Shown one piece after another: positions 6,266 through 61,200 of a DNA stretch of 64,000 nucleotides; position 1 is the first letter of the stretch, and every line of letters starts with the position of its first letter. Location: positions 124,001-188,000 of the forward strand of contig NW_026925526.1 in NCBI RefSeq assembly GCF_032062105.1, read 5' to 3'. The translations under genes and the position numbers were made by a program. Source of the DNA: Saccostrea cucullata. Lineage: Eukaryota. The notes under the pieces are model-generated. The model saw nothing but the letters and a program-made list of their open reading frames with translations. It was not told where the DNA came from and did not search any database.

Positions 6266-6859
6266 CTGGTGTCTCATAATATCGCGGTACTTTATCCTTT
6301 TGCATAAAAAGTGTTATTCCAATTTTTTACTTTTAACTTTCATCAAATACTATCCATTAACCAATCTATGGCCTAACTTTTTAGTGTCAAATTATTTCAC
6401 AAGTTTGCATTGGTTAATTTGTTGTCTAATTTTAAAACGGGGAGTCTTATTTACCTCCTGAATTGTAGAGTCTCATAGAATCGCGGTATAGGAAAACATG
6501 GAAACTTGTGGCTGACATGGACTTCAATTTTTATTTTTATATGTACGGTGCAATTCTACATAAAAAATCAACATTTATACAAACTAAAGACTTTCGAAAC
6601 ATGAACTTTATTACGGCTTTTACTAGGTTATAAAATCAATGATCTAAATATGATAAAAAACGGGAATGGAAATCTGTAAGATTACGTTTTATTTGAATAA
6701 AAAATTTACCGACGCATATTCCATACTTTTTAATCATCAAAAAAGTATACATTCGGACGAAAAACAGATGGTTTTTTAACAAAGAGGATATGAACTATGT
6801 ATCTGAATTTTTCAAATATATCGCGATACAATGGAACCCGCGATATAATGAGAAGCGAG
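6266..6859. mobile_element. MITE with ~22-bp imperfect TIRs and TA(TA) flanks
   Basis: tata|ctggtgtctcataatatcgcgg ... ccgcgatataatgagaagcgag|tata. Confidence 0.6.
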
Positions 6860-7661
6860 TATATAAAAAGATTGATGGAATCCGATGCTAGTTAGGTAAA
6901 TCAAGAGCTTGATAGTATTCATCGTCGGAAACCCACGGGTGATCTCGTCTTTACTTATCACTCGCAAACTCGCCGAAATATCGTCGTAAAATATGTTAAT
7001 TTGTTGTTTTTAGTTAATCAATCAGAAAGTTGGAACTCTTCAATATTGAAAAATACGTTTATTACTTTGCTATTTAAAGTAAATATTTTGACGCTCGTTG
7101 AAATGTGCGAAGTTTGATTTAGAACAATGAAAATGAATTCGTTCAGGTCACTGACATTAATTATATCCGTCAGATATTATATAGGAGTACCTCTTTCTAA
7201 CTGCAAAATGCGCCGGGGAGTGAATTTATCAGCTGTGTTAACTAAGGAATTAAGTTTTTCATGTTTTTGGCAATGCCGAACATGCATACGTAACGTTGTT
7301 TGGCATCGCGACTCTGTGTAGCAGCCAATCAAATGACCCATGCATATTTAATTACATACGACGATATTTCGGCGAGTTTGCCCGCAGAAGGATAAAACGT
7401 ACGCTCAACTAGGACCTTAGGTCCCCCGCAAATAGTTCGTCATTTTGCGTAGTAATAAAACATTTTAGGAACTCTTCAGGCATAAAAGGCACAAAAGTAA
7501 ATTCATCGATATCAATACGGAGACCTCAGGTCACCTTATATATTTATTGAATTTTATATGATAGAGAGTTTTCTTTGTCTTACTCCAAAATAATCATATT
7601 AATAACTTTATACAGATCTACTTTCTAAAATATATATATTAGCAGAAACGTGAAAGTAATT

Positions 7662-9060
7662 AGGGGGACCAGAGGTAACCTTATATTATACATCAGTAGG
7701 GTGACCAGTAGTCACCTAATATTGTACATCATTAGAAGGATCATAGGTCACCTTGCATTTTAAATTAATAGGGGACCAAAAGTAACCGTTTATTGCACAT
7801 CATAAGGGGGACCTTAGGATACCTTATATTGTACATCATTTGGGGGACCAGAGGTCACCTTATATTGAACATCAATAAGGAGACCACAGGTCACCTTATA
7901 TTGCACATCAGTAGGGGGACCAGAGGTCACCTTATATTGAAAATCAATAAGGAGACCAGTAGTCATCTTATATTGTACATCAGTAGGGGGAACAGAGGAC
8001 ACCTTATATTGTACATCAGTAGGGGGCTTAGAGGTCACCTTATATTGTACATCGGTAGGGGGACAAGAAGGTCACCTTCTATTGTACATCAGTAGGGGGA
8101 CTAGAGTTCACCTTATATTGTACATCAGTAGGGGAGCAAGAGGTTGTCTTATATTGTCCAATAGTAGGGGTACTAGAGGTCACCTGATATTGTAAATTAG
8201 TAGGGGCACAGTGGACACCTTATATTATACATCATTAGGGGGACTAGAGGTCACCTTATATTGTACATCAGTAGGAGGACCAGAGGTTATCTTCATATTG
8301 TACATCAGCAGGGGTACCAGAGGACACCTTATATTGTTCATCAGTAGGGAGACCAGAGGTCACCTTATATTGTACATCAGTAGTGGGACCAGAGGACACC
8401 ATATAGTGTGCATCAGAAGGGGAACCAGAGGTCACCTTGTATTGTACATCATTAGGGGGACTAGAGGTCACCTTATATTGTACATCAGTAGGGGGACCAG
8501 AGGTCACCTCATATTGTACATCAGCACAGGGACCAGAGGTCACCTCATATTGTACATCATTAGGGGGACTAGAGGTCACCTTATATTGAACATCATTAGG
8601 GGGACTAGAGGTCACCTTGTATTTTACATCAGTAGGGGGACCAGAGGTCACCATATATTGTACATTAGTAGGGGGACCTGAGGACACCTTATATTGTACA
8701 TTATTTGGGGGACCAGAGATCACCTTATATTGTACATCAATAGGGGTACCAGATGTCACCTTGTATTTTACATCAATAGGGGTACCAGATGTCACCTTGT
8801 ATTTTACATCAATAGGGAGACCAGAGGTCACCTTCTATTGTACATCATTAGGGGGACCAGAGGTACTTCATTTTGTTAATCAATTGAAAGATCAGAGGTA
8901 TCCTCAAATTGTAAATGAATAGGGAGGCCAGAGGTTACCTTATGTTGTAAATCAATAAGTAACCAGAGATCACCTTATATTGTAAGTCTGCATAGAGACC
9001 CGAAGACGCCTGATATTTTACATAAATATGGAGACCAAAGGAGTCCTTATTTGGTCACCT
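7662..9060 (+). repeat. 36-bp tandem array, left arm (~38 units)
   Basis: Consensus gggggaccagaggtcaccttatattgtacatcagta, which gives the 12-aa periodic ORFs (GTRGHLILYISR). Confidence 0.95.
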
Positions 9061-10615
9061 GAATCAACTCATGTGACTTATTGATATCTGTGGCTTTTTT
9101 TCTGGCGTCGTGCGCTGTGCTTTGTGCGTTAACATTCGAACATTTTCAGCTTCTCACTGCAATCCCTCGACCATTTACAACCAATTTTGGCATAAAGCAT
9201 CTATGTGTGAAGGGGAATTTTTTTTTTAATCATGGTCCGTGCCCTCCACCCTGTCGGTCAGAGGGTTGGGGCGAAACCACTACAATTGATGCGATCTTTA
9301 AAAATCTATTTTACTCATTGACATCAGGCCATAAAACTGTTGGCATAATTATTTTAAGCATTCACTTCTCCTCTACCAAAATTCTGAAATTCATTGTCCC
9401 AGGGTCAGGGGCTCTGGGGTTAGGACGTGGCTATAAAAATCATATAATGAAATGAATTTATTCTTTGAAAATCTTCTCCTCTTCTCCTGGATATTAAACA
9501 AACTAAATGCATAGTTATGATGAGGAAGGGTGTCTTCTCCAAAGTTCTGAAATTATGACCCAAGGGATAGGGGTTCTGGTGTTAGGGTGGGGCTATATAA
9601 ATTGTAAAGTTAAAATATATTTATTCTTAAAAAAAGATCTTCTCTGCTCCTGGATATATATTAAACTAACTAAGGCAACTGGCTTACATGTATATCTACC
9701 ATTGAGGAGTGGGGGCTCTAATTAAATACTGTAATTGAATTAATGCTTTGAAATTTGTTCTTTGGTATAAACCCAGAAATTTTTTATGAGCAATGGTGCC
9801 TTTTCCAAAATTGTGAAATGTATGACCCCAGGATGGGGTTTTTTATGGTGAATGGGCACTGCTAATTATTGGTAATTAAAACTAACTATTACTTATTATT
9901 TGAAATGTACTTTTTTGTTCCCATACTCTCGATGGGTATTACGAAGCCAAACTAAGCGGGGGTCAACATTACCACTACATCGCTAAAAATTTTAACTCAT
10001 TACCGCTACATTGTTTCAAAATTTCGACCGATCATTACTGCTACATAAGGAATCAATCGGGTATGCAGGTACGGGATTTAATATACGTTTAATCACAAAG
10101 CTTTCACAAAGAATTCAGCACGAAGTTTTACAGTTCTCATTCTAAAATGTTTGAAATTTTGGCAATGTTGACAGAAGTTTAATATTAGCAGTGTCAAATA
10201 AAACGTTATAGGTCCATTATTTGTTGTACCTTATTCTACATATTTTGAAGTCGCATGTGAATATGGGATGTTGTATTTCAGAGGATACAGGTCTTATACA
10301 TGTATATGTTGTACTTACATCAATCTGTACACGCACAAGTGGCTGGCAATGTAGCGGTAATTTATACTTTTATATGTAGCAGTAATGTAATGTTTTTTGT
10401 AGCGGAAATGACTATGCAGTGGTAATGAAAATTTTGAAAATGTAGTAGTAATGATACGCACCCAAGTTAACATGCTAAGTATATAGTTATGATGAGCAAT
10501 AGTGCTTTTTTTTCAAAAATTGCGAATGTCATGGCCAATGCTCGAACCAAATTCAATCGTTGTCAAGTTTTTACATGATATTCAGATGACCTATAAGACC
10601 CATGGGCCTCTTGTT
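9047..10615. mobile_element. Helentron/HINE-like non-autonomous insertion in the centre of the foldback element, with a further TIR element at ~9959-10463
   Basis: Starts ttatttggtcacctgaatc and ends agacccatgggcctcttgtt; these termini match the element at 27677-28730 in reverse. Inner element has cattaccactacat...atgtagtagtaatg inverted ends. Confidence 0.55.
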
Positions 10616-10789
10616 GTTTTCTGATAAGTGAACTTCTGGTATTCTGTTAATATGCATTTTATCTGTAACCTCTGGTCCATCCTTATTTTCATTTGAGATG
10701 TCTCTCAGTTAAGACGAGTCTAGTATCGTTGATGCCTTATCTCTGCAATCATGTAAGTTTTATTTTTGTCTGGTGTCCTTAAAAATGTA

Positions 10790-13610
10790 CGACAATGGAG
10801 ACTACTGGTTTCCCTATTTATGCACAATATAAGATGACCTCTGCTTCCCCTAATAATGTACAGTATAAGGTGACCTCTGGTCAACCTTGTGTTGTAAAAT
10901 ATTAGGTGACCTTCGGTCCCCCTAATGATCTACAACATAGGGTGACATCTTGCCCCCTTTTGATGTATAAGGTGACCTCTGCTTCCCCTAACGATGTACA
11001 ATATAATCTGACGTCTGGTCTTGTACAGTATAAGGTGACATGTGTCCCCCTTGTGTTGTACAACATAAAGGTGACCTCTATTCTCCATAATAATATAAAG
11101 GAAAAGGTGACCTGTGGTCAACCTATTGATGCAAAAAACAAATTGACCTCTGGCCCACATATTGATGAACATTAAAACTAAACTCAGGCTCTGGTCCCCT
11201 AATTGATGTAAAATATAAAGTGACCTCTTCCCTCTATTAATATACAATAGAGATGACTTTTAGTCCCCCTTTTGATATACAAAATCAGGTGGTCTCTGGT
11301 CCCTCTATTGATGTGAAATATAAGGTGACCTCTTCCCCCTATTTATATACAATATCAAGTGACTTCTAGTCCCCTTCCTGATGTTCAATATAAAATGGCC
11401 TCTGGCCCCCTATTGTTGTACAATATAAGGTGACCTCTGGTCCCCTAATAATGTACAAAATAATGTGATCTCGGATCTCTTTAATTAAGTACAACATAAG
11501 GTTACCTCTTGTCCCCCTAATGATGTACATGTGAATTGATCACTGGTCTCCCTACTGATGTACAAGATAAGGTGACCTCTGGTCCCCTACTGATGTGCAA
11601 TATGAGTTGAACTTTGGTATCCCTAAAAATGTACATATAGGGTGACCTCTGGTACCGCAGTGATGTACAATATAGGGTTACCCTGATCTCCCCATAGATA
11701 TATACATAAGGAGAACCTCTACATGCTGTCCCCCTATTAGACAAAATAAGATGACCTCTGGTCCTCTGAATTAAAGGTTATACCTGGTCCCCCTATTTAT
11801 GTACATAAAGGGTGACCACTGGTTCGTCTATTCATGTACATATAAGATGACCTCTGGTCCCTCTTATGATGTACAGTATAAGGTGACCTATGGTCCCCCT
11901 AATGATGTTCAATATAAACTTACCTCTGGTCCCCCTAATGATGTTCAATATAAGGTAACCTCTGGTCCCCTAATGGTCTACAATATAAGGTGATCTATGG
12001 TTCCCCTAATGATGTTCAATATAAAGTGACCTCTGGTCCCCCTAATGATGTTCAATATAAGGTGACCTCTGGTCCCCTAATGGTGTTCAATATAAGGTAA
12101 CCTCTGGTCCCCCTGATGATGTAGAATATATGATGACCGCAGGTCCCCTATTGATGTTCAATATAAGCTTACCTCAGGTCCCCCTTATAATGTACAGTAT
12201 AAGGTGACCTATGGTCCCCCTAATGATGTTCAATATAAAGTAACCTCTCGTCCCCTAATGGTGTACAATATAAGGTGACCTCTGGTCCCCCTAGTGATGT
12301 TCAATATAAACTTACCTCTGGTCCCCCTAATGATGTTCAATATAAGGTAACCTCTGGTCCCCTAATGGTGTACAATATAAGGTGACTTATGGTCCTCCTA
12401 ATGATGTTCAATATAAGCTTACCTCTGGTCCCCTAATGGTGTACAATGTAAGGTGACCTCTGGTCCCCCTAATGATGTTCAATATAAGCTTACCTCTGGT
12501 CCTCCTAATGATTTTCAGTAGAAACTTACATCTGGTCCCCCTAATGATATTCAATATAAGGTGACCTCTGGTCCCCCTAATGATGTTCAATATAAGGTGA
12601 CCTCTGGTCCCCCTGATGATGTAGAATATATGATGACCTCAGGTCCCTCTAATGATGTTCAATATAAAGTGACCTCTGGTCCCCCTAATGATGTTCAATA
12701 TAAGGTGATCTCTGGTCCCCCTGATGATGTAGAATATATAATGACCTCAGGTCACTCTAATGATGTTCAATATAAGGTGACCTCTGGTCCCCCTGATGAT
12801 GTAGAATATAAGCTTACCTCTGGTCCCCTAATGGTGTACAATATAAGGTGACCTATGGACCCCTTTATGACGTTTGATATAAGGTGATCTCTGGTCTCCT
12901 AATGGTGTTCAATATAAGGTGACCCCTGGTCCCCCAATGATGTTCAATATAAGGTGACCTCTGGTCCCCTAATGATGTACAATATAAGGTGACCTCTAGT
13001 CGAATAATTATGAACAATATAAGGTGACCTCTGGTCCCCCTAATGATGTTCAATATAAGGTGACCTCTGGTCCCCTAATGGTGTACAATATAAGGTGACC
13101 TATGGTCCCCTTAATGATGTTTGATATAAGGTGATTCCTGGTCCCCTAATTATGTTCAATGTAAGGTGACCTCTGGTCATCCTACTAATGTACAATATAA
13201 CGCACCTCTGATCCCCCTAGTCATGTACAATATAAGGTGACCTCTAGTCCCCATTATTGATGTTCAATATAAGGTGACCTGTGGTCCCCCTAATGATGTA
13301 CAATATAAAGTGCCCTCTTGTCCCCTAATGATCCACAGTATACTATAAGGTGACCTCTGTTCCCTCAAATGATGTGGAACAGAAGGTGACATCTGGTCTC
13401 CCTTTTGATGTACAATAAGGTGATCTCTGGTCCCCCTAATGATGTTCACTTAAGGTGACCTCTGGTCCCCTATGGATGTACATACCAGGTATAAGGTGAC
13501 CTCTGGTCCCCCTATTAAGGTACAATATGAGGTCACCTCTGGCCCCCCTAATGATACAATATTAGGTGACCTCTGGTCATATGATTTTTTTGTTACCTCT
13601 GGTATCCGCA
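10790..13610 (-). repeat. 35/36-bp tandem array, right arm (~75-80 units), reverse complement of the left array
   Basis: Consensus taatgatgttcaatataaggtgacctctggtccccc. Recurring variant gatgatgtagaatata at 12115, 12615, 12723 and 12795. Confidence 0.95.
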
Positions 13611-14938
13611 TAAACATTTTGGAAACAAGCGGAAGGAAGCCGTATATCATGATTTCATAGCTAAGAAATTGTAGTATATGAATGAAACAATGGTAAACTT
13701 ATGTTGTACATTATTACGATGTCACTGAAAGTTTTGAGTAGGTAATAATTTCAAAATCGTGGTATGCGTAGAATTATTTTTCAAATCCACCCCAAAAAAC
13801 TTTGCGACCCTAATTTTTTGACAGGGAAAAAAGTGCACCATTTCTCCGAATTCTCTAAGTGTATGTAATTGGGTTAGTCAACTTGCTTGTCTTCAAATAC
13901 AGTATATGTATCCTAAAAGTAAATCACAATTGGTGCATTTTTTAAATTTTATTTCTTTTTTTTAAATATAGTTTTGATTGGTTTATGGATTTGATGTGTA
14001 AATTCCATTGAAAGTGGGAGAACTCCAGCCCTAACCATCGCAATACGTACATCTTCTTTGTACGATAAATAAAATCAGAAGTTTACTAAATAGTGTTAAA
14101 TTGATGATATCGCCTGTTGAGGCATGACGGCATAAGGAAGACAAAGGTCACATAAAATAATTTATTAACAATTAATTATTGTTCAAGGATGTTAAAGGAT
14201 CGGTGAGAAGTCCGAGCGAAATGAAGAGGGTGGGGGTGGTAGGGGGGGCAATATTTGCTCCTCCTGCTTGTTAGAGATCTGCAAATGCAGAGACTGGACG
14301 TCGTTTACTCTGAATCGCTTACTATTAGTAAGGAAATCAGAGGTTAGGCACTGTATTAAATAGATACTATAACCTTACAGGGAATAATAAAATCATAAGG
14401 GAGACCACAGGTCACCCAACGTAAGCCATAGATGTTAAACTTTTATATATCATATATTTGTAGTTAATAATGTTGTTCTTCACCCCCCCCCCTTTCATCC
14501 TTTCTAATTCCCATCCGATAGTTATTTCTTTGGCAAAAAATAAATTTTCTGGGTTTTTTTTAACACTGTAAAGGCTTCATAGTAGTACGATTTATTCTAT
14601 TTTCACTTTACGTATTCAACGCACTACATTTTGTAGCGGAGTAAAAAGGCCCGATAGTCGTGAACTGAATAGGGGACCTAAGGTCCTAGTTGAGCGTACG
14701 TTTTATCCTTCTGCAGTTTGCCCACGGGTGACAAGTAAAGACGAGATCACCCGTGGGTTTCCGACGATGGATATAGTATTAAAAATAGTGAAATATGATT
14801 TAGGAGAATCTTTTCCTTTCGATGGGAATTAAAATTTAAAAAATGGAATAAAAAAAATAGCTGCACAATACACATTGGAATCCTAAATGTGCATTCTTAA
14901 GTAATTACCAACATTAAGTTTATGAAACACAAACTTAA

Positions 14939-58273: not shown

Positions 58274-61200
58274 CTAGGCTGTTGAAGTATCATTGTCTGC
58301 GACAGATGATTGTGTTCTAGACTCCAAAGTGCTTCTGGAATCGGTCATTCGACTCGCTGTTTTCTTCTTTCGGGGTACAAACTTACAGACCATGCTATCG
58401 TTCACTTCATCCATATCGCCTCGACCTTTCAGCCAATATGTCGTCATCTTTCCCTTTCCCTAACAGTAGATAAAATTGACAATTTCTAGCGAAGTCTGAT
58501 TTTATCAGTTATATTAATAAATGTGATTATTCAAAACGAGGGAAACCGGTATGTTTTAAATCATTTCTACATATCAATCCTTCTTTATATTGAAAAGACA
58601 TTGAAAAGATATCAAATCTTGCAGGAAAACAAATTTTAAAAATGTATTATTCGTTATGTACAAGTATAATGATTTAGAATTTGAACATTTTGAAATGAGA
58701 TAGTAAACATATCATGAGGAAAAATACAAAAGAAAATGTGAGAGAGTAATTTTATTTTTTTCCGAGTAAGTTTTCAAAAGTATATTTAAAGATAAGTATG
58801 CTTATTCTAAATCGTAGATTAAATTCAGGATTATTAAAATATCTGAATTTACAGTACCTTGATTTCCACTTCTCCTCTTTCAACTAACGTAAATTGTCCT
58901 GAATTATATAAAATAGCATAGGTTGCTTCACTGCAGTGGATTTTCATTGCTATACAAAAAAACATAATAGAAATAGATGAATTCATAAAACATAAATAGA
59001 TACAATGAACTGTTAATATTTTTGGAATTGTGGCCCACAGGGCGAAGTGGATAAAGCGTTTTCTCTTGTATATAGCTAAGTACATGTAATTAGTTGATTT
59101 TTACTTTGGGGGTTCGAATCGCAGGATAAGGAGACCGTTCCGTCATGTGAGGCCGTATAAACCTAAACCCTTCGCTGCACTAGGTGCAAGCACGGAAAAG
59201 ATCGTAAACTGCTCAAAAGCAGTAAGTGCGGAGTACAAGTCTAAGTATGCAACCCCCAAATGAAAGTGGTAGCTGCTTCTCAAAATGAGGTAAATTTCCC
59301 AGAGACACTAAACAAACAAACAAAACATAGAGAGAGTTCATAATACCTCTTTTAAGAGAACCTTTCTTTAGACGATGGCTTGACACTAATTGAGATCATA
59401 AATGAGTAGAATTTTATCTTAAAGGGGTCGGCACCCGTAAACAATGGAAAAAAGTTCTTTTTATCTTCACATTTTGTCTTATTTGGGTATTTTTCAGCCA
59501 ACTTACGTAATCCTGAGGACTCCATTCTTGAAGCTGTATTAATGGTGTCACCAAAGAGACAATATCGCGGCATTTTGATCCCAACTACCCCTGCCACACA
59601 GGGACCTGATAAAGAAATCCAAACATGTTTAAGTTATAAAAAAGTGGATACCGAAAGGTAAGGAAAATTTCTTTATTCGGATAAACTGTACAAATTGTGG
59701 ACAGAAAACATCACTTAACCCCCAATAAACACCAGGCCCAGGTATCATGAGACATCTTAAGCATAAGTCAAAATATTCATGTTGTACTAAAATTTTGATT
59801 AAGTGAAGCAGACAAAACGTAAAGTATTTGTCAAAATTGCTTCACAAATTTTCAATTGCCTGTAAAATGTTTATTAATTATTGAATTAGTCTCTTAATTT
59901 GCAGAAAGCAACGCTTTTGGAAAAAAAGTGAAATATTTTAGTTAAGGGATGCTTGAATTCTACAACATTTCAATCAACATAAAGATTTTGATTATGATCA
60001 TGATCCCGAGTAGAAGGTAAAATCACCTGTCTCCCGATCACGCTGTGGGCATCTATATTGATTGGTAATTAATGGAATCATCCAAAGTCATAATTTGAAG
60101 TCAATGGTTTTAGATGTTGTGTACATGTCAGGTAAAATTATTAGGTTATATTTCAAACAAAATCAGTATATCAACTTTAAAATTTGCTAAGTAAAGAATC
60201 AAAAAAGAATTGTTCTTATACATTGTATTTACGATTCCTGTGACATCAACAGTAGTCTTCCCCGCTTTTTAAACTGATTATATTCAGAAAATGTCCTTGC
60301 GAACTGAATCTTTTTGGACACATATTTACATTAAATAAAGACTATGCTTTAGTAGAATTATACTACATAAAAGGGACTTTGACAATAGAAATGCAAAAAT
60401 CATCCTATTTATTAAAAACATGTAGTTTAGTTAGTTGGTCACTGACATCTAATGTAAGACTCCTGTTGTCTCTCTCAATTTCTCTTCTCAGGTAGAAGAT
60501 TTGAAAAATAATTCAACTTTATAAGGATCTTATAAACATATCAGGTAATAAAAGAGTACATTAAATAGCCATCGAAATTTCAACAGCGTTTATAAAACCT
60601 CGAAGGACCAACTAAAAACTGATTTATTTTTTATCCAAGGAAATCTGTTGGTGGCGTAGCGTCCATTCAGGCAAAAAGGGAAAATGTCTAGACATAATTT
60701 TGGGCAAAATTGACTTACATATTTTATCAGTAAATTATTTTGATAATCCAAATTATAAATTAAATATTTATTTTATAGATAAATTTTAAAAAAAGTTTTA
60801 GTACATATACATTTTGTAGCAAGTTTGCACAGACTTGGTTCTTTTAGTGCCTTAAGAAATAATGTTATTTCGAGGGAAATATAAATTCAAAAATGTCAAC
60901 TAAAAAAAAGTAAACTTTTTTTTATCTTAAAACGAAAAAAAAAATATCGAAGGTTGAAAGTCCATCAATAGATGAATTTGATTCCCCTTCAGAAATGGCC
61001 ACATTTGAATCAAAGCATGCAGTCAAGCCAAAACGTCAAAAAAATATTGCACATTCTTGCCATCACCTTTGGCAAATAAGGAAAACGCCGAGTTCCTCAA
61101 AACAACGTAGGAAGCTTTGATGATTTATTCCCAAGCAAGTAAGTATAAAGTGCCATGGGTGACAATAAACCCAAATTAGTTTCAAACTTACATGCAGTTA

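Follow-up and report, generated by a model that had tools for sequence, protein, structure and literature searches.

A 7.3-kb element with precise ends, lying at 7384..14714 in the 64,000-nucleotide stretch of Saccostrea cucullata DNA analysed here (the window), is supported as a foldback-type DNA transposon belonging to a dispersed family. This identity had been proposed in an earlier note on the same DNA and is borne out by the inverted ends (TIRs), the target-site duplication (TSD), an empty site and contig copies with the same ends. In full, we read the element with good confidence as a non-coding transposon that belongs to a dispersed family, has 43-bp inverted ends and opposed 36-bp arrays, entered an older MITE with a 9-bp duplication and was probably mobilised in trans by a Mutator-superfamily transposase. 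Its features are listed in Table 1.

Table 1. Features of the element and its insertion site, in window positions.
Feature	Positions	Strand	Remarks
Host MITE, left part	6920..7383	+	left TIR ~6920-6988; right TIR starts ~7357, split by the insertion
Left 9-bp TSD	7375..7383	+	from end comparison; single copy at paralogous empty site
Left 43-bp TIR	7384..7426	+	inner end with palindrome GACC-N3-GGTC, pointing opposite to the adjoining array
Left outer domain	7427..7659	+	no inverted relationship to the right outer domain; a lone + unit at 7518
Left array	7660..9052	+	39 units, each 36 bp, on average 87% to consensus; final unit truncated by HINE
Nested HINE, Cg_HINE_4-like ends	9051..10612	+	boundaries +/- 3 bp
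Decayed MULE-like MITE in HINE	9958..10463		3 + ~5 opposed 14-bp subterminal repeats
Right array	10618..13612	-	~80 clear + 5 decayed units, on average 83% to consensus, 35/36-bp lengths mixed
Right outer domain	13613..14671	+	multi-copy, structure varies among relatives; scattered degenerate + units, best at 14399
Right 43-bp TIR	14672..14714	-	from end comparison; 21 X1 contigs diverge exactly past 14714
Right 9-bp TSD	14715..14723	+	from end comparison
Host MITE, remainder of right TIR	14724..14769	+	42/41/35 contigs stop at 14769

The TIRs are perfectly complementary (43/43 positions) and show no relation further in. The TSD, AGTTTGCCC, is equally perfect, and both had been recognised as such before. 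Duplication lengths of 2-15 were tried and only 9 gave a match, with a composition-based chance of ~1.5e-6. Excising the element with one TSD copy in silico restored an older host MITE of 510 bp, in which the rejoined sequence shows 91% identity over 77 bp to the other TIR of that MITE and holds the target in one copy. Because the element interrupts one TIR of this MITE and the other TIR keeps the site unbroken, the 9-bp duplication is a true TSD. Over TIR and TSD, 52/52 positions are perfect (95% upper bound on divergence, 5.6%), whereas inside the element no intact TSD remains at the nested MITE, and likeness among the HINE monomers is 56-74%. The contrast between perfect ends and an older interior, as previously described, thus stands, and the interior looks to predate the latest jump.

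The same ends were seen in public contigs from two organisms. Contigs from four of 24 runs (DNA runs X1, X2 and X5, and one RNA run) were compared over the region 13600-16300, among the matches listed. In X1, 24 contigs pass from 14715 into host-MITE-like sequence and represent paralogous empty sites, while 21 depart behind 14714 into dissimilar flanks (agreement 0.41). The TIR is joined to left-end inner sequence, with the first 30 bp of the left outer domain recurring, in 17, 13 and 9 contigs of X1, X2 and X5, respectively. The inner edge of the TIR was therefore recovered in all three DNA runs and its outer edge in X1. Summed contig depth relative to single-copy sequence, which does not equal copy number, was ~150-400x near the TIR and ~15-30x at 14108. 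TIR patterns had no matches in metagenome or viral contigs, and one and then none in prokaryote genomes, the single match (L001) being due to chance and ending at 20 bp. Unit patterns had no matches in the metagenome, viral and prokaryote collections, and Rfam gave none over 6500-16500.

The arrays make up 57% of the element. The unit numbers first estimated, ~38 against ~75-80 in opposite orientation, agree with our segmentation into 39 units on the + strand and about 80-85 on the - strand (85 rows, 80 of them clear and 5 scarcely recognisable). TRF reported 36.8 copies at 7661-8984, 71.7 at 11022-13578 and 2.1 at 10805-10879. A unit profile search found 115 sites within the element and six weak ones in the remaining 56,669 bp of the window, where no unit array lies outside the element. 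Of the proposed arm architecture, the opposed orientation was retained and the mirror image was not: the arms, unequal in length, are 78% alike over 1398 columns and have no mirror register (p=0.36, 1000 permutations). The inequality in length and the 78% likeness rule out an assembly foldback chimera, and the missing register a recent inverted duplication. Nesting of a same-family copy as origin of the - array was also rejected, the window having only two TIR matches. Units of the same arm were more similar to each other than in any of 2000 label shuffles, in a test that ignores neighbour autocorrelation, and the longest exact matches were 49 and 75 bp inside the arms versus 35 bp across them.

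Both arrays are set back from the TIRs, by 233 bp on the left and ~1060 bp on the right, with non-inverted domains between. A continuous inversion of the arms from the termini, as in a modular TIR, was not found, the outer domains aligning no better than shuffles (scores of 85-89, shuffle mean 88). Because these domains are not inverted copies, the element is foldback-like and does not form a classical continuous-TIR foldback. The lack of inversion here also fits a secondary origin of the foldback shape, in which a single direct array was ancestral to the same transposon family and its palindromic unit favoured, in this lineage, an internal inversion of the distal two-thirds. Degenerate units past the - array indeed lie in + orientation (13678, 14132, 14328 and 14396), and X1 and X2 contigs hold a better + unit fragment at 13635-13651. 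However, the most decayed units flank both array turn points, therefore any inversion would be old. In addition, the sequence immediately right of the outer turn (from 13609) was multi-copy in each of the three DNA runs. In a single X5 contig, weak evidence for that reason, a - unit fragment directly precedes 14386. We consider this secondary origin unlikely.

The middle of the element had been described as a central spacer. It is not native and consists of a nested Helentron-type HINE that encloses a decayed MULE-like MITE, and when the HINE is taken out the arrays abut without a native middle domain. The features of a Helentron HINE are present: a 5' subTIR and IR (9053-9077), a microsatellite remnant (9106), central tandem repeats (~163-bp monomers), a 3' subTIR (10582-10591) with a palindrome (around 10599-10606), and a T-rich site. 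They were placed by short-motif match to the Cg_HINE_4 and Cg_HINE_10_13 rows. Cg_HINE_4 of Crassostrea gigas is described with the same order of parts, namely subTIR and IR, a CGTCGTS microsatellite, ~165-bp monomers, 3' subTIR with palindrome and a T-rich site (PMC7492417). Helentrons are the known oyster route of tandem-repeat dispersal (PMC7492417), but the likeness applies to the passenger spacer alone, and the 36-bp arrays ride the TIR element.

Regarding the source of the arrays, TIR and unit agree at 19 of 30 positions when aligned ungapped from the TIR inner end. The palindrome GACC-N3-GGTC, a motif picked post hoc, occurs 42 times inside the element and never in the 56.7 kb outside. 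Freely aligned, the similarity of TIR and unit is modest (shuffle p=0.024), and 34 of the 1312 43-mers of the window do as well. An origin of the 36-bp unit inside the transposon is favoured because its palindromic core sits at the inner end of the TIR; judged from these sequences, the unit more likely arose there than was captured. This shared core does not support the earlier view of a satellite carried as cargo, according to which a short-TIR MITE would have captured a pre-existing host satellite and dispersed it. The large share of the arrays in the element, their divergence (83-87% to consensus), the modest TIR-unit similarity and the seemingly greater abundance of ends than interiors would suit such a capture. 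Nevertheless, the TIR itself contains the palindrome, as do isolated units of both outer domains, the window is without units outside the element, and none of the 52 C. gigas satellites of Table 1 in PMC8268682, a list that may not be the host's, has a monomer of 36 bp. Capture is thus quite improbable.

Under an origin within the transposon, the unit would derive from the inner ~30 bp of the TIR, and the transposase would bind the TIR plus the motif repeated across the arrays. Amplification would have been separate in each arm, via slippage or unequal exchange. The HINE, with the MITE inside, would have landed at the meeting point of the two arrays, and the composite of arrays, HINE and MITE would then have jumped into its present site. 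Within the arrays, identity is 86% for the palindrome, 90% for its spacer and 84% for the remainder. Because the palindrome is not better conserved and is intact in only 36 of 114 units, there is no visible selection for binding.

A total of 54 stop-to-stop frames of at least 45 aa overlap the element, the longest of 188 aa. A Pfam scan of 29 of these left 27 unmatched, while two array-derived frames had repeat-driven matches in which no stretch passes on its own; no transposase was found, in line with the lack of coding capacity noted before. Harbinger-type genes at 44.5-47 kb (DDE_Tnp_4/Myb) were ruled out as partner, also by TSD size. Harbinger-type elements make short TSDs. Since a partner transposase was not found, the superfamily is inferred from structure, which points to Mutator/MULE. 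MULE TSDs span 8-11 bp, a range that includes the 9 bp at this copy, and the Rehavkus TSD is 9 bp (PMC6446971). The element begins with GC. Among 29 bivalve MULE 5' ends from a curated set, 28 start with G but none with GC; many carry G/C-run subterminal repeats that resemble the TIR motif, by eye only (PMC10294476, suppl. file 24). No TIR or unit word occurred in that file within the initial ~400 letters of any curated bivalve DDE element, nor in 12 of 33 supplement files of PMC10294476 or three of PMC6446971, whose supplement lists C. gigas MuDR-1 with a 48-bp TIR. The autonomous MULE partner that had been envisaged was found neither in the scanned frames of the element nor in the curated bivalve supplements scanned. 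P and hAT elements usually make 7-8 bp duplications. Mobilisation by another superfamily (P/Galileo-like, hAT or Merlin) is highly improbable: foldback structures did not originate in one superfamily only (PMC4079207, PMC5499845) and terminal GC is seen in none of the 29 MULE ends, but the 9-bp TSD matches MULE/Rehavkus.

The foldback design with repeat arms is already known from flies, beetles and nematodes. Drosophila FB elements have an 8-9-bp TSD, unequal repeat numbers at the two ends and non-autonomous derivatives. Muta1 (Aedes) and Tm1 (Meloidogyne) share these traits with our element, but their repeats are 12-15 bp long and start at the terminus (PMC5225508, PMC5499845, PMC3169594), whereas the 36-bp repeats here lie back from the terminus and are oriented against the copy of the motif within the TIR. 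Subterminal repeats raise Muta1 transposase binding and excision (PMC5499845). Tetris of Drosophila virilis, assigned to Mutator by its 8-10-bp TSD only, is likewise a non-autonomous foldback with a non-repetitive flanking domain followed by a tandem-repeat domain, and a short part of its repeat also occurs in the terminal domain (PMC4079207). In contrast, the units of Tetris measure ~220 bp, each arm of a complete copy holds few of them, the flanking domains are inverted and a middle domain is present (PMC4079207), while our element has 36-bp units (39 and ~80), only 43 bp truly inverted and no native middle. Tribolium Rehavkus elements, put forward as satellite vehicles and sources, carry inverted termini in which the TIR is combined with variable tandem repeats that number up to 50 or extend over >11 kb (PMC12581902). 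Rehavkus is transposase-defined and described from arthropods and annelids (PMC12581902, PMC6446971), whereas our element has no transposase. A PHD-finger transposase and a minisatellite close to the TIR are the marks of Rehavkus. Our element is likely a non-autonomous Mutator-type foldback such as Tetris, Rehavkus or Tm1. The literature searched held no bivalve example.

A read-through transcript can be folded in silico into dsRNA, as had been suggested, but one RNA run of low power lends this no support, with depth 0 in both single-copy bins from the neighbouring gene to the element. That gene has AATAAA signals ~100 and ~260 nt past its stop. No host function of the element is indicated, and it is most likely selfish DNA. 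A broader reading, which we find doubtful as a whole, is a bivalve foldback whose TIR-derived transposase site grew into two kilobase arrays, head to head without a middle of their own and facing opposite to the TIR site. Such a 7-kb composite with stacked passengers would still jump, would give oysters, through its TIRs, a second way for satellites to arise and spread, and could, as it moves, supply long imperfect dsRNA able to silence its own family. In oyster-type bivalves, tandem-repeat dispersal has so far been credited mainly to Helentrons, and the element carries the model of foldbacks as satellite nurseries from insects and nematodes to a bivalve, an extension of modest weight. Its array sizes and four-level nesting (MITE, foldback, HINE, MITE) make it well suited to the question of whether arms of such great length still aid transposition.

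The terminal 43 bp of the element were perfectly complementary to each other, with the match ending there, and AGTTTGCCC was present on both flanks, 9 being the sole duplicated length among the 2 to 15 bp tested. These results bear out the perfect 43-bp TIRs and 9-bp TSD of an earlier note made from the sequence alone. Both flanks belong to an older MITE split by the element (host MITE). In silico excision of the element with one 9-mer copy restored the right TIR of this host MITE (91% identical to the left TIR across 77 bp). The restored TIR contained the target 9-mer once, and the left TIR had a 4-bp gap overlapping the last bases of the target. The 9-bp duplication is thus a true TSD. In the public DNA run X1, 24 contigs passed from 14715 into host-MITE-like sequence; these count as paralogous empty sites rather than proven empty alleles. 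For the host-MITE terminus copy at 15320-15385, relatives had short hairpin derivatives made of a ~25-bp internal repeat.

Features of the element and its surroundings (window positions)
Feature	Position	Strand	Size	Remarks
Older host MITE	6920 to 14769 without insertion		510 bp	Carries both element flanks
Element	7384-14714		7331 bp	
Left array	7660-9052	+	39 units	By segmentation
Right array	10618-13612	-	85 rows	By segmentation; innermost 5 barely recognisable
HINE microsatellite	9106			CGTCGTS, as in Cg_HINE_4 (PMC7492417)
HINE monomers	Downstream of 9106 microsatellite		~163 bp	
MITE nested in HINE	9958-10463			Opposed 14-bp repeats
HINE 3' subTIR	10582-10591			
HINE palindrome	Around 10599-10606			
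MITE	14935-15308		374 bp	TTAA at both ends; 22-bp inverted termini
Third copy of host-MITE terminus	15320-15385			
Cys/His-rich exon	15850-16056	-		Ends in stop, then AATAAA at 15742 and 15585
Direct duplication	28725-29803 / 31780-32989			87%
Direct duplication	29801-31517 / 34050-35771			97%
Nested direct and inverted repeats (21/64/204 bp)	41461-42694		1.2 kb	~70% self-complementary
Harbinger-type pair	44560-46971	+ / -		DDE_Tnp_4 nuclease frames (+), Myb/SANT frame (-)

TRF identified one 36-bp array on each side of the element, and the segmented arrays agree with the ~38 and ~75-80 opposed units first read. Mean identity to the consensus was 87% on the left (38 units) and 83% on the right (76 units with ≤3 gaps). 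The unit profile had 115 sites within the element; across the remaining 56,669 bp of the window it had 6, all weak. In keeping with the lack of coding capacity first read, no transposase was among the 29 frames scanned against Pfam (of 54 open frames ≥45 aa); a control frame taken from another part of the window matched DDE_Tnp_4. Rfam had no match to the element.

The element belongs to a dispersed family. We aligned contigs from four of 24 listed runs, DNA runs X1, X2, and X5 and RNA run X21, to positions 13600-16300. These runs do not come from the window's individual; X1, for instance, has 8 differences over 187 letters of the neighbouring exon. In X1, 21 contigs broke off right after 14714 and ran on into unlike flanks (agreement 0.41). 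Sequence at the TIR inner edge continued into left-end inner sequence in 17 (X1), 13 (X2), and 9 (X5) contigs. Hence, both ends and the 43-bp TIR length characterise the whole family in two organisms. Summed depth, which is not a copy number, was ~150-400x single-copy beside the TIR versus 15-30x at 14108, and aligned contigs had many internal skips (48-420 bp), suggesting many short derivatives. Microbial collections (metagenome, viral, and prokaryote sequences) held no TIR or unit match of note.

Taken as a whole, this is a real, non-autonomous foldback-like transposon, quite probably mobilised by Mutator. TSDs of MULEs are 8-11 bp and MuDRs are known in oysters (PMC6446971). Foldback ends with 8-9-bp TSDs have been tied to MULE transposases in Tm1 and Muta1, and Muta1 binding and excision rise with more subterminal repeats (PMC3169594, PMC5225508, PMC5499845). 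Tribolium Rehavkus has inverted termini with up to 50 repeats or >11 kb of satellite (PMC12581902). Tetris, assigned to Mutator on its TSD alone, follows a like logic, with a stretch common to terminal domain and repeat (PMC4079207). By analogy, the element, a putative MULE, would work like Tetris or Rehavkus. Among curated bivalve elements (PMC10294476 supplement), no TIR words occurred in the first ~400 letters of each DDE element, and of 29 MULE ends examined, 28 start with G but 0 with GC. The 52 C. gigas satellites covered in PMC8268682 include no 36-bp monomer. We found no bivalve foldback of this kind in the literature searched, and the family may already be catalogued, Repbase and Dfam lying outside the comparison.

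Each arm was probably amplified separately, because left and right units gave no diagonal in mirror register (p = 0.36), same-arm units were slightly more alike than in 2000 of 2000 label shuffles (108 units, neighbours not being independent), and the longest exact repeats were 49 and 75 bp within arms versus 35 bp between them. An old internal inversion, by which the foldback shape would be secondary to the flipping of the distal two-thirds of one ancestral direct array, is kept alive by two observations: alignment found no inverted-copy relation between the outer domains, and degenerate units to the right of the - array are in + orientation. Over its inner 30 bp, the TIR aligned with the unit at 19 of 30 positions, the stretch ending on the palindrome GACC-N3-GGTC, a motif picked post hoc with 42 copies within the element versus 0 outside in the window. 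The free alignment score was modest (p = 0.024; 34 of 1312 window 43-mers score as high), and the palindrome copy in the TIR is oriented opposite to the adjacent array. Conservation in the arrays was 86% for the palindrome, 90% for its spacer, and 84% for the rest, with the palindrome intact in 36 of 114 units. As the palindrome is not preferentially conserved, most units now look more like a drifting minisatellite than selected binding sites.

The central spacer of the earlier note is instead a passenger, a nested Helentron-type element (HINE, 9051-10612, 1562 bp) with Cg_HINE_4-like motifs at both ends; positions 9053-9077 match the Cg_HINE_4 subTIR and IR (PMC7492417). These motifs also suggest an oyster-type host. 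Without it, the element measures 5769 bp and the last + unit adjoins the first decayed - units. The HINE sits where the arrays turn, and its subTIR (9053-9062) has 8 letters in common with the unit core; this position may reflect chance or target preference. Compared by eye, the 14-bp repeats of the MITE nested in the HINE agree at 13 of 14 letters with the subterminal repeat in a curated MULE from an ark clam. The ends of this MITE carry no TSD with ≤1 mismatch and the HINE monomers are only 56-74% alike, versus 52 of 52 positions perfect in the outer TIR and TSD (divergence upper bound 5.6%). Provided that the nested-MITE boundaries are right, the interior thus probably predates the last jump, as had been proposed.

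Aligned over 1398 columns, the arms are 78% alike (82% counting G-U). The duplex predicted for them comprises 1119 pairs spread over 157 helices with a median length of 6 bp; seven helices are ≥21 bp, and the longest is 35 bp. An 800 x 800 fold test gave -1032 kcal/mol versus -282 to -335 for five shuffles and -456 for a same-sense control. From these predictions, a long imperfect duplex would be possible if the element were transcribed through. The proposed read-through dsRNA is thus foldable in silico, but AATAAA follows the stop of the Cys/His-rich exon, and X21, at low power, had a depth of 0 on either strand of 15420-15510 and of 14783-14873, versus 3-6 on the exon. The X21 animal may lack the insertion. 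This exon, expressed at low depth in X21, had no Pfam match; a paralogous exon lies at about 19540-19780 (-), both with an internal duplicated motif.

The MITE at 14935-15308, presumably Kolobok-like by its features, had very high depth in X1, X2, and X5 and was also present in RNA. The repeats at 41461-42694 are possibly another foldback-like element. The direct duplications are large and span 28725-35771 overall. Caspase exons (PF00656 on relatives) and a frame resembling, by eye, a guanylate-cyclase exon were observed at 39095-40351 (-) and 59352-59633 (-).
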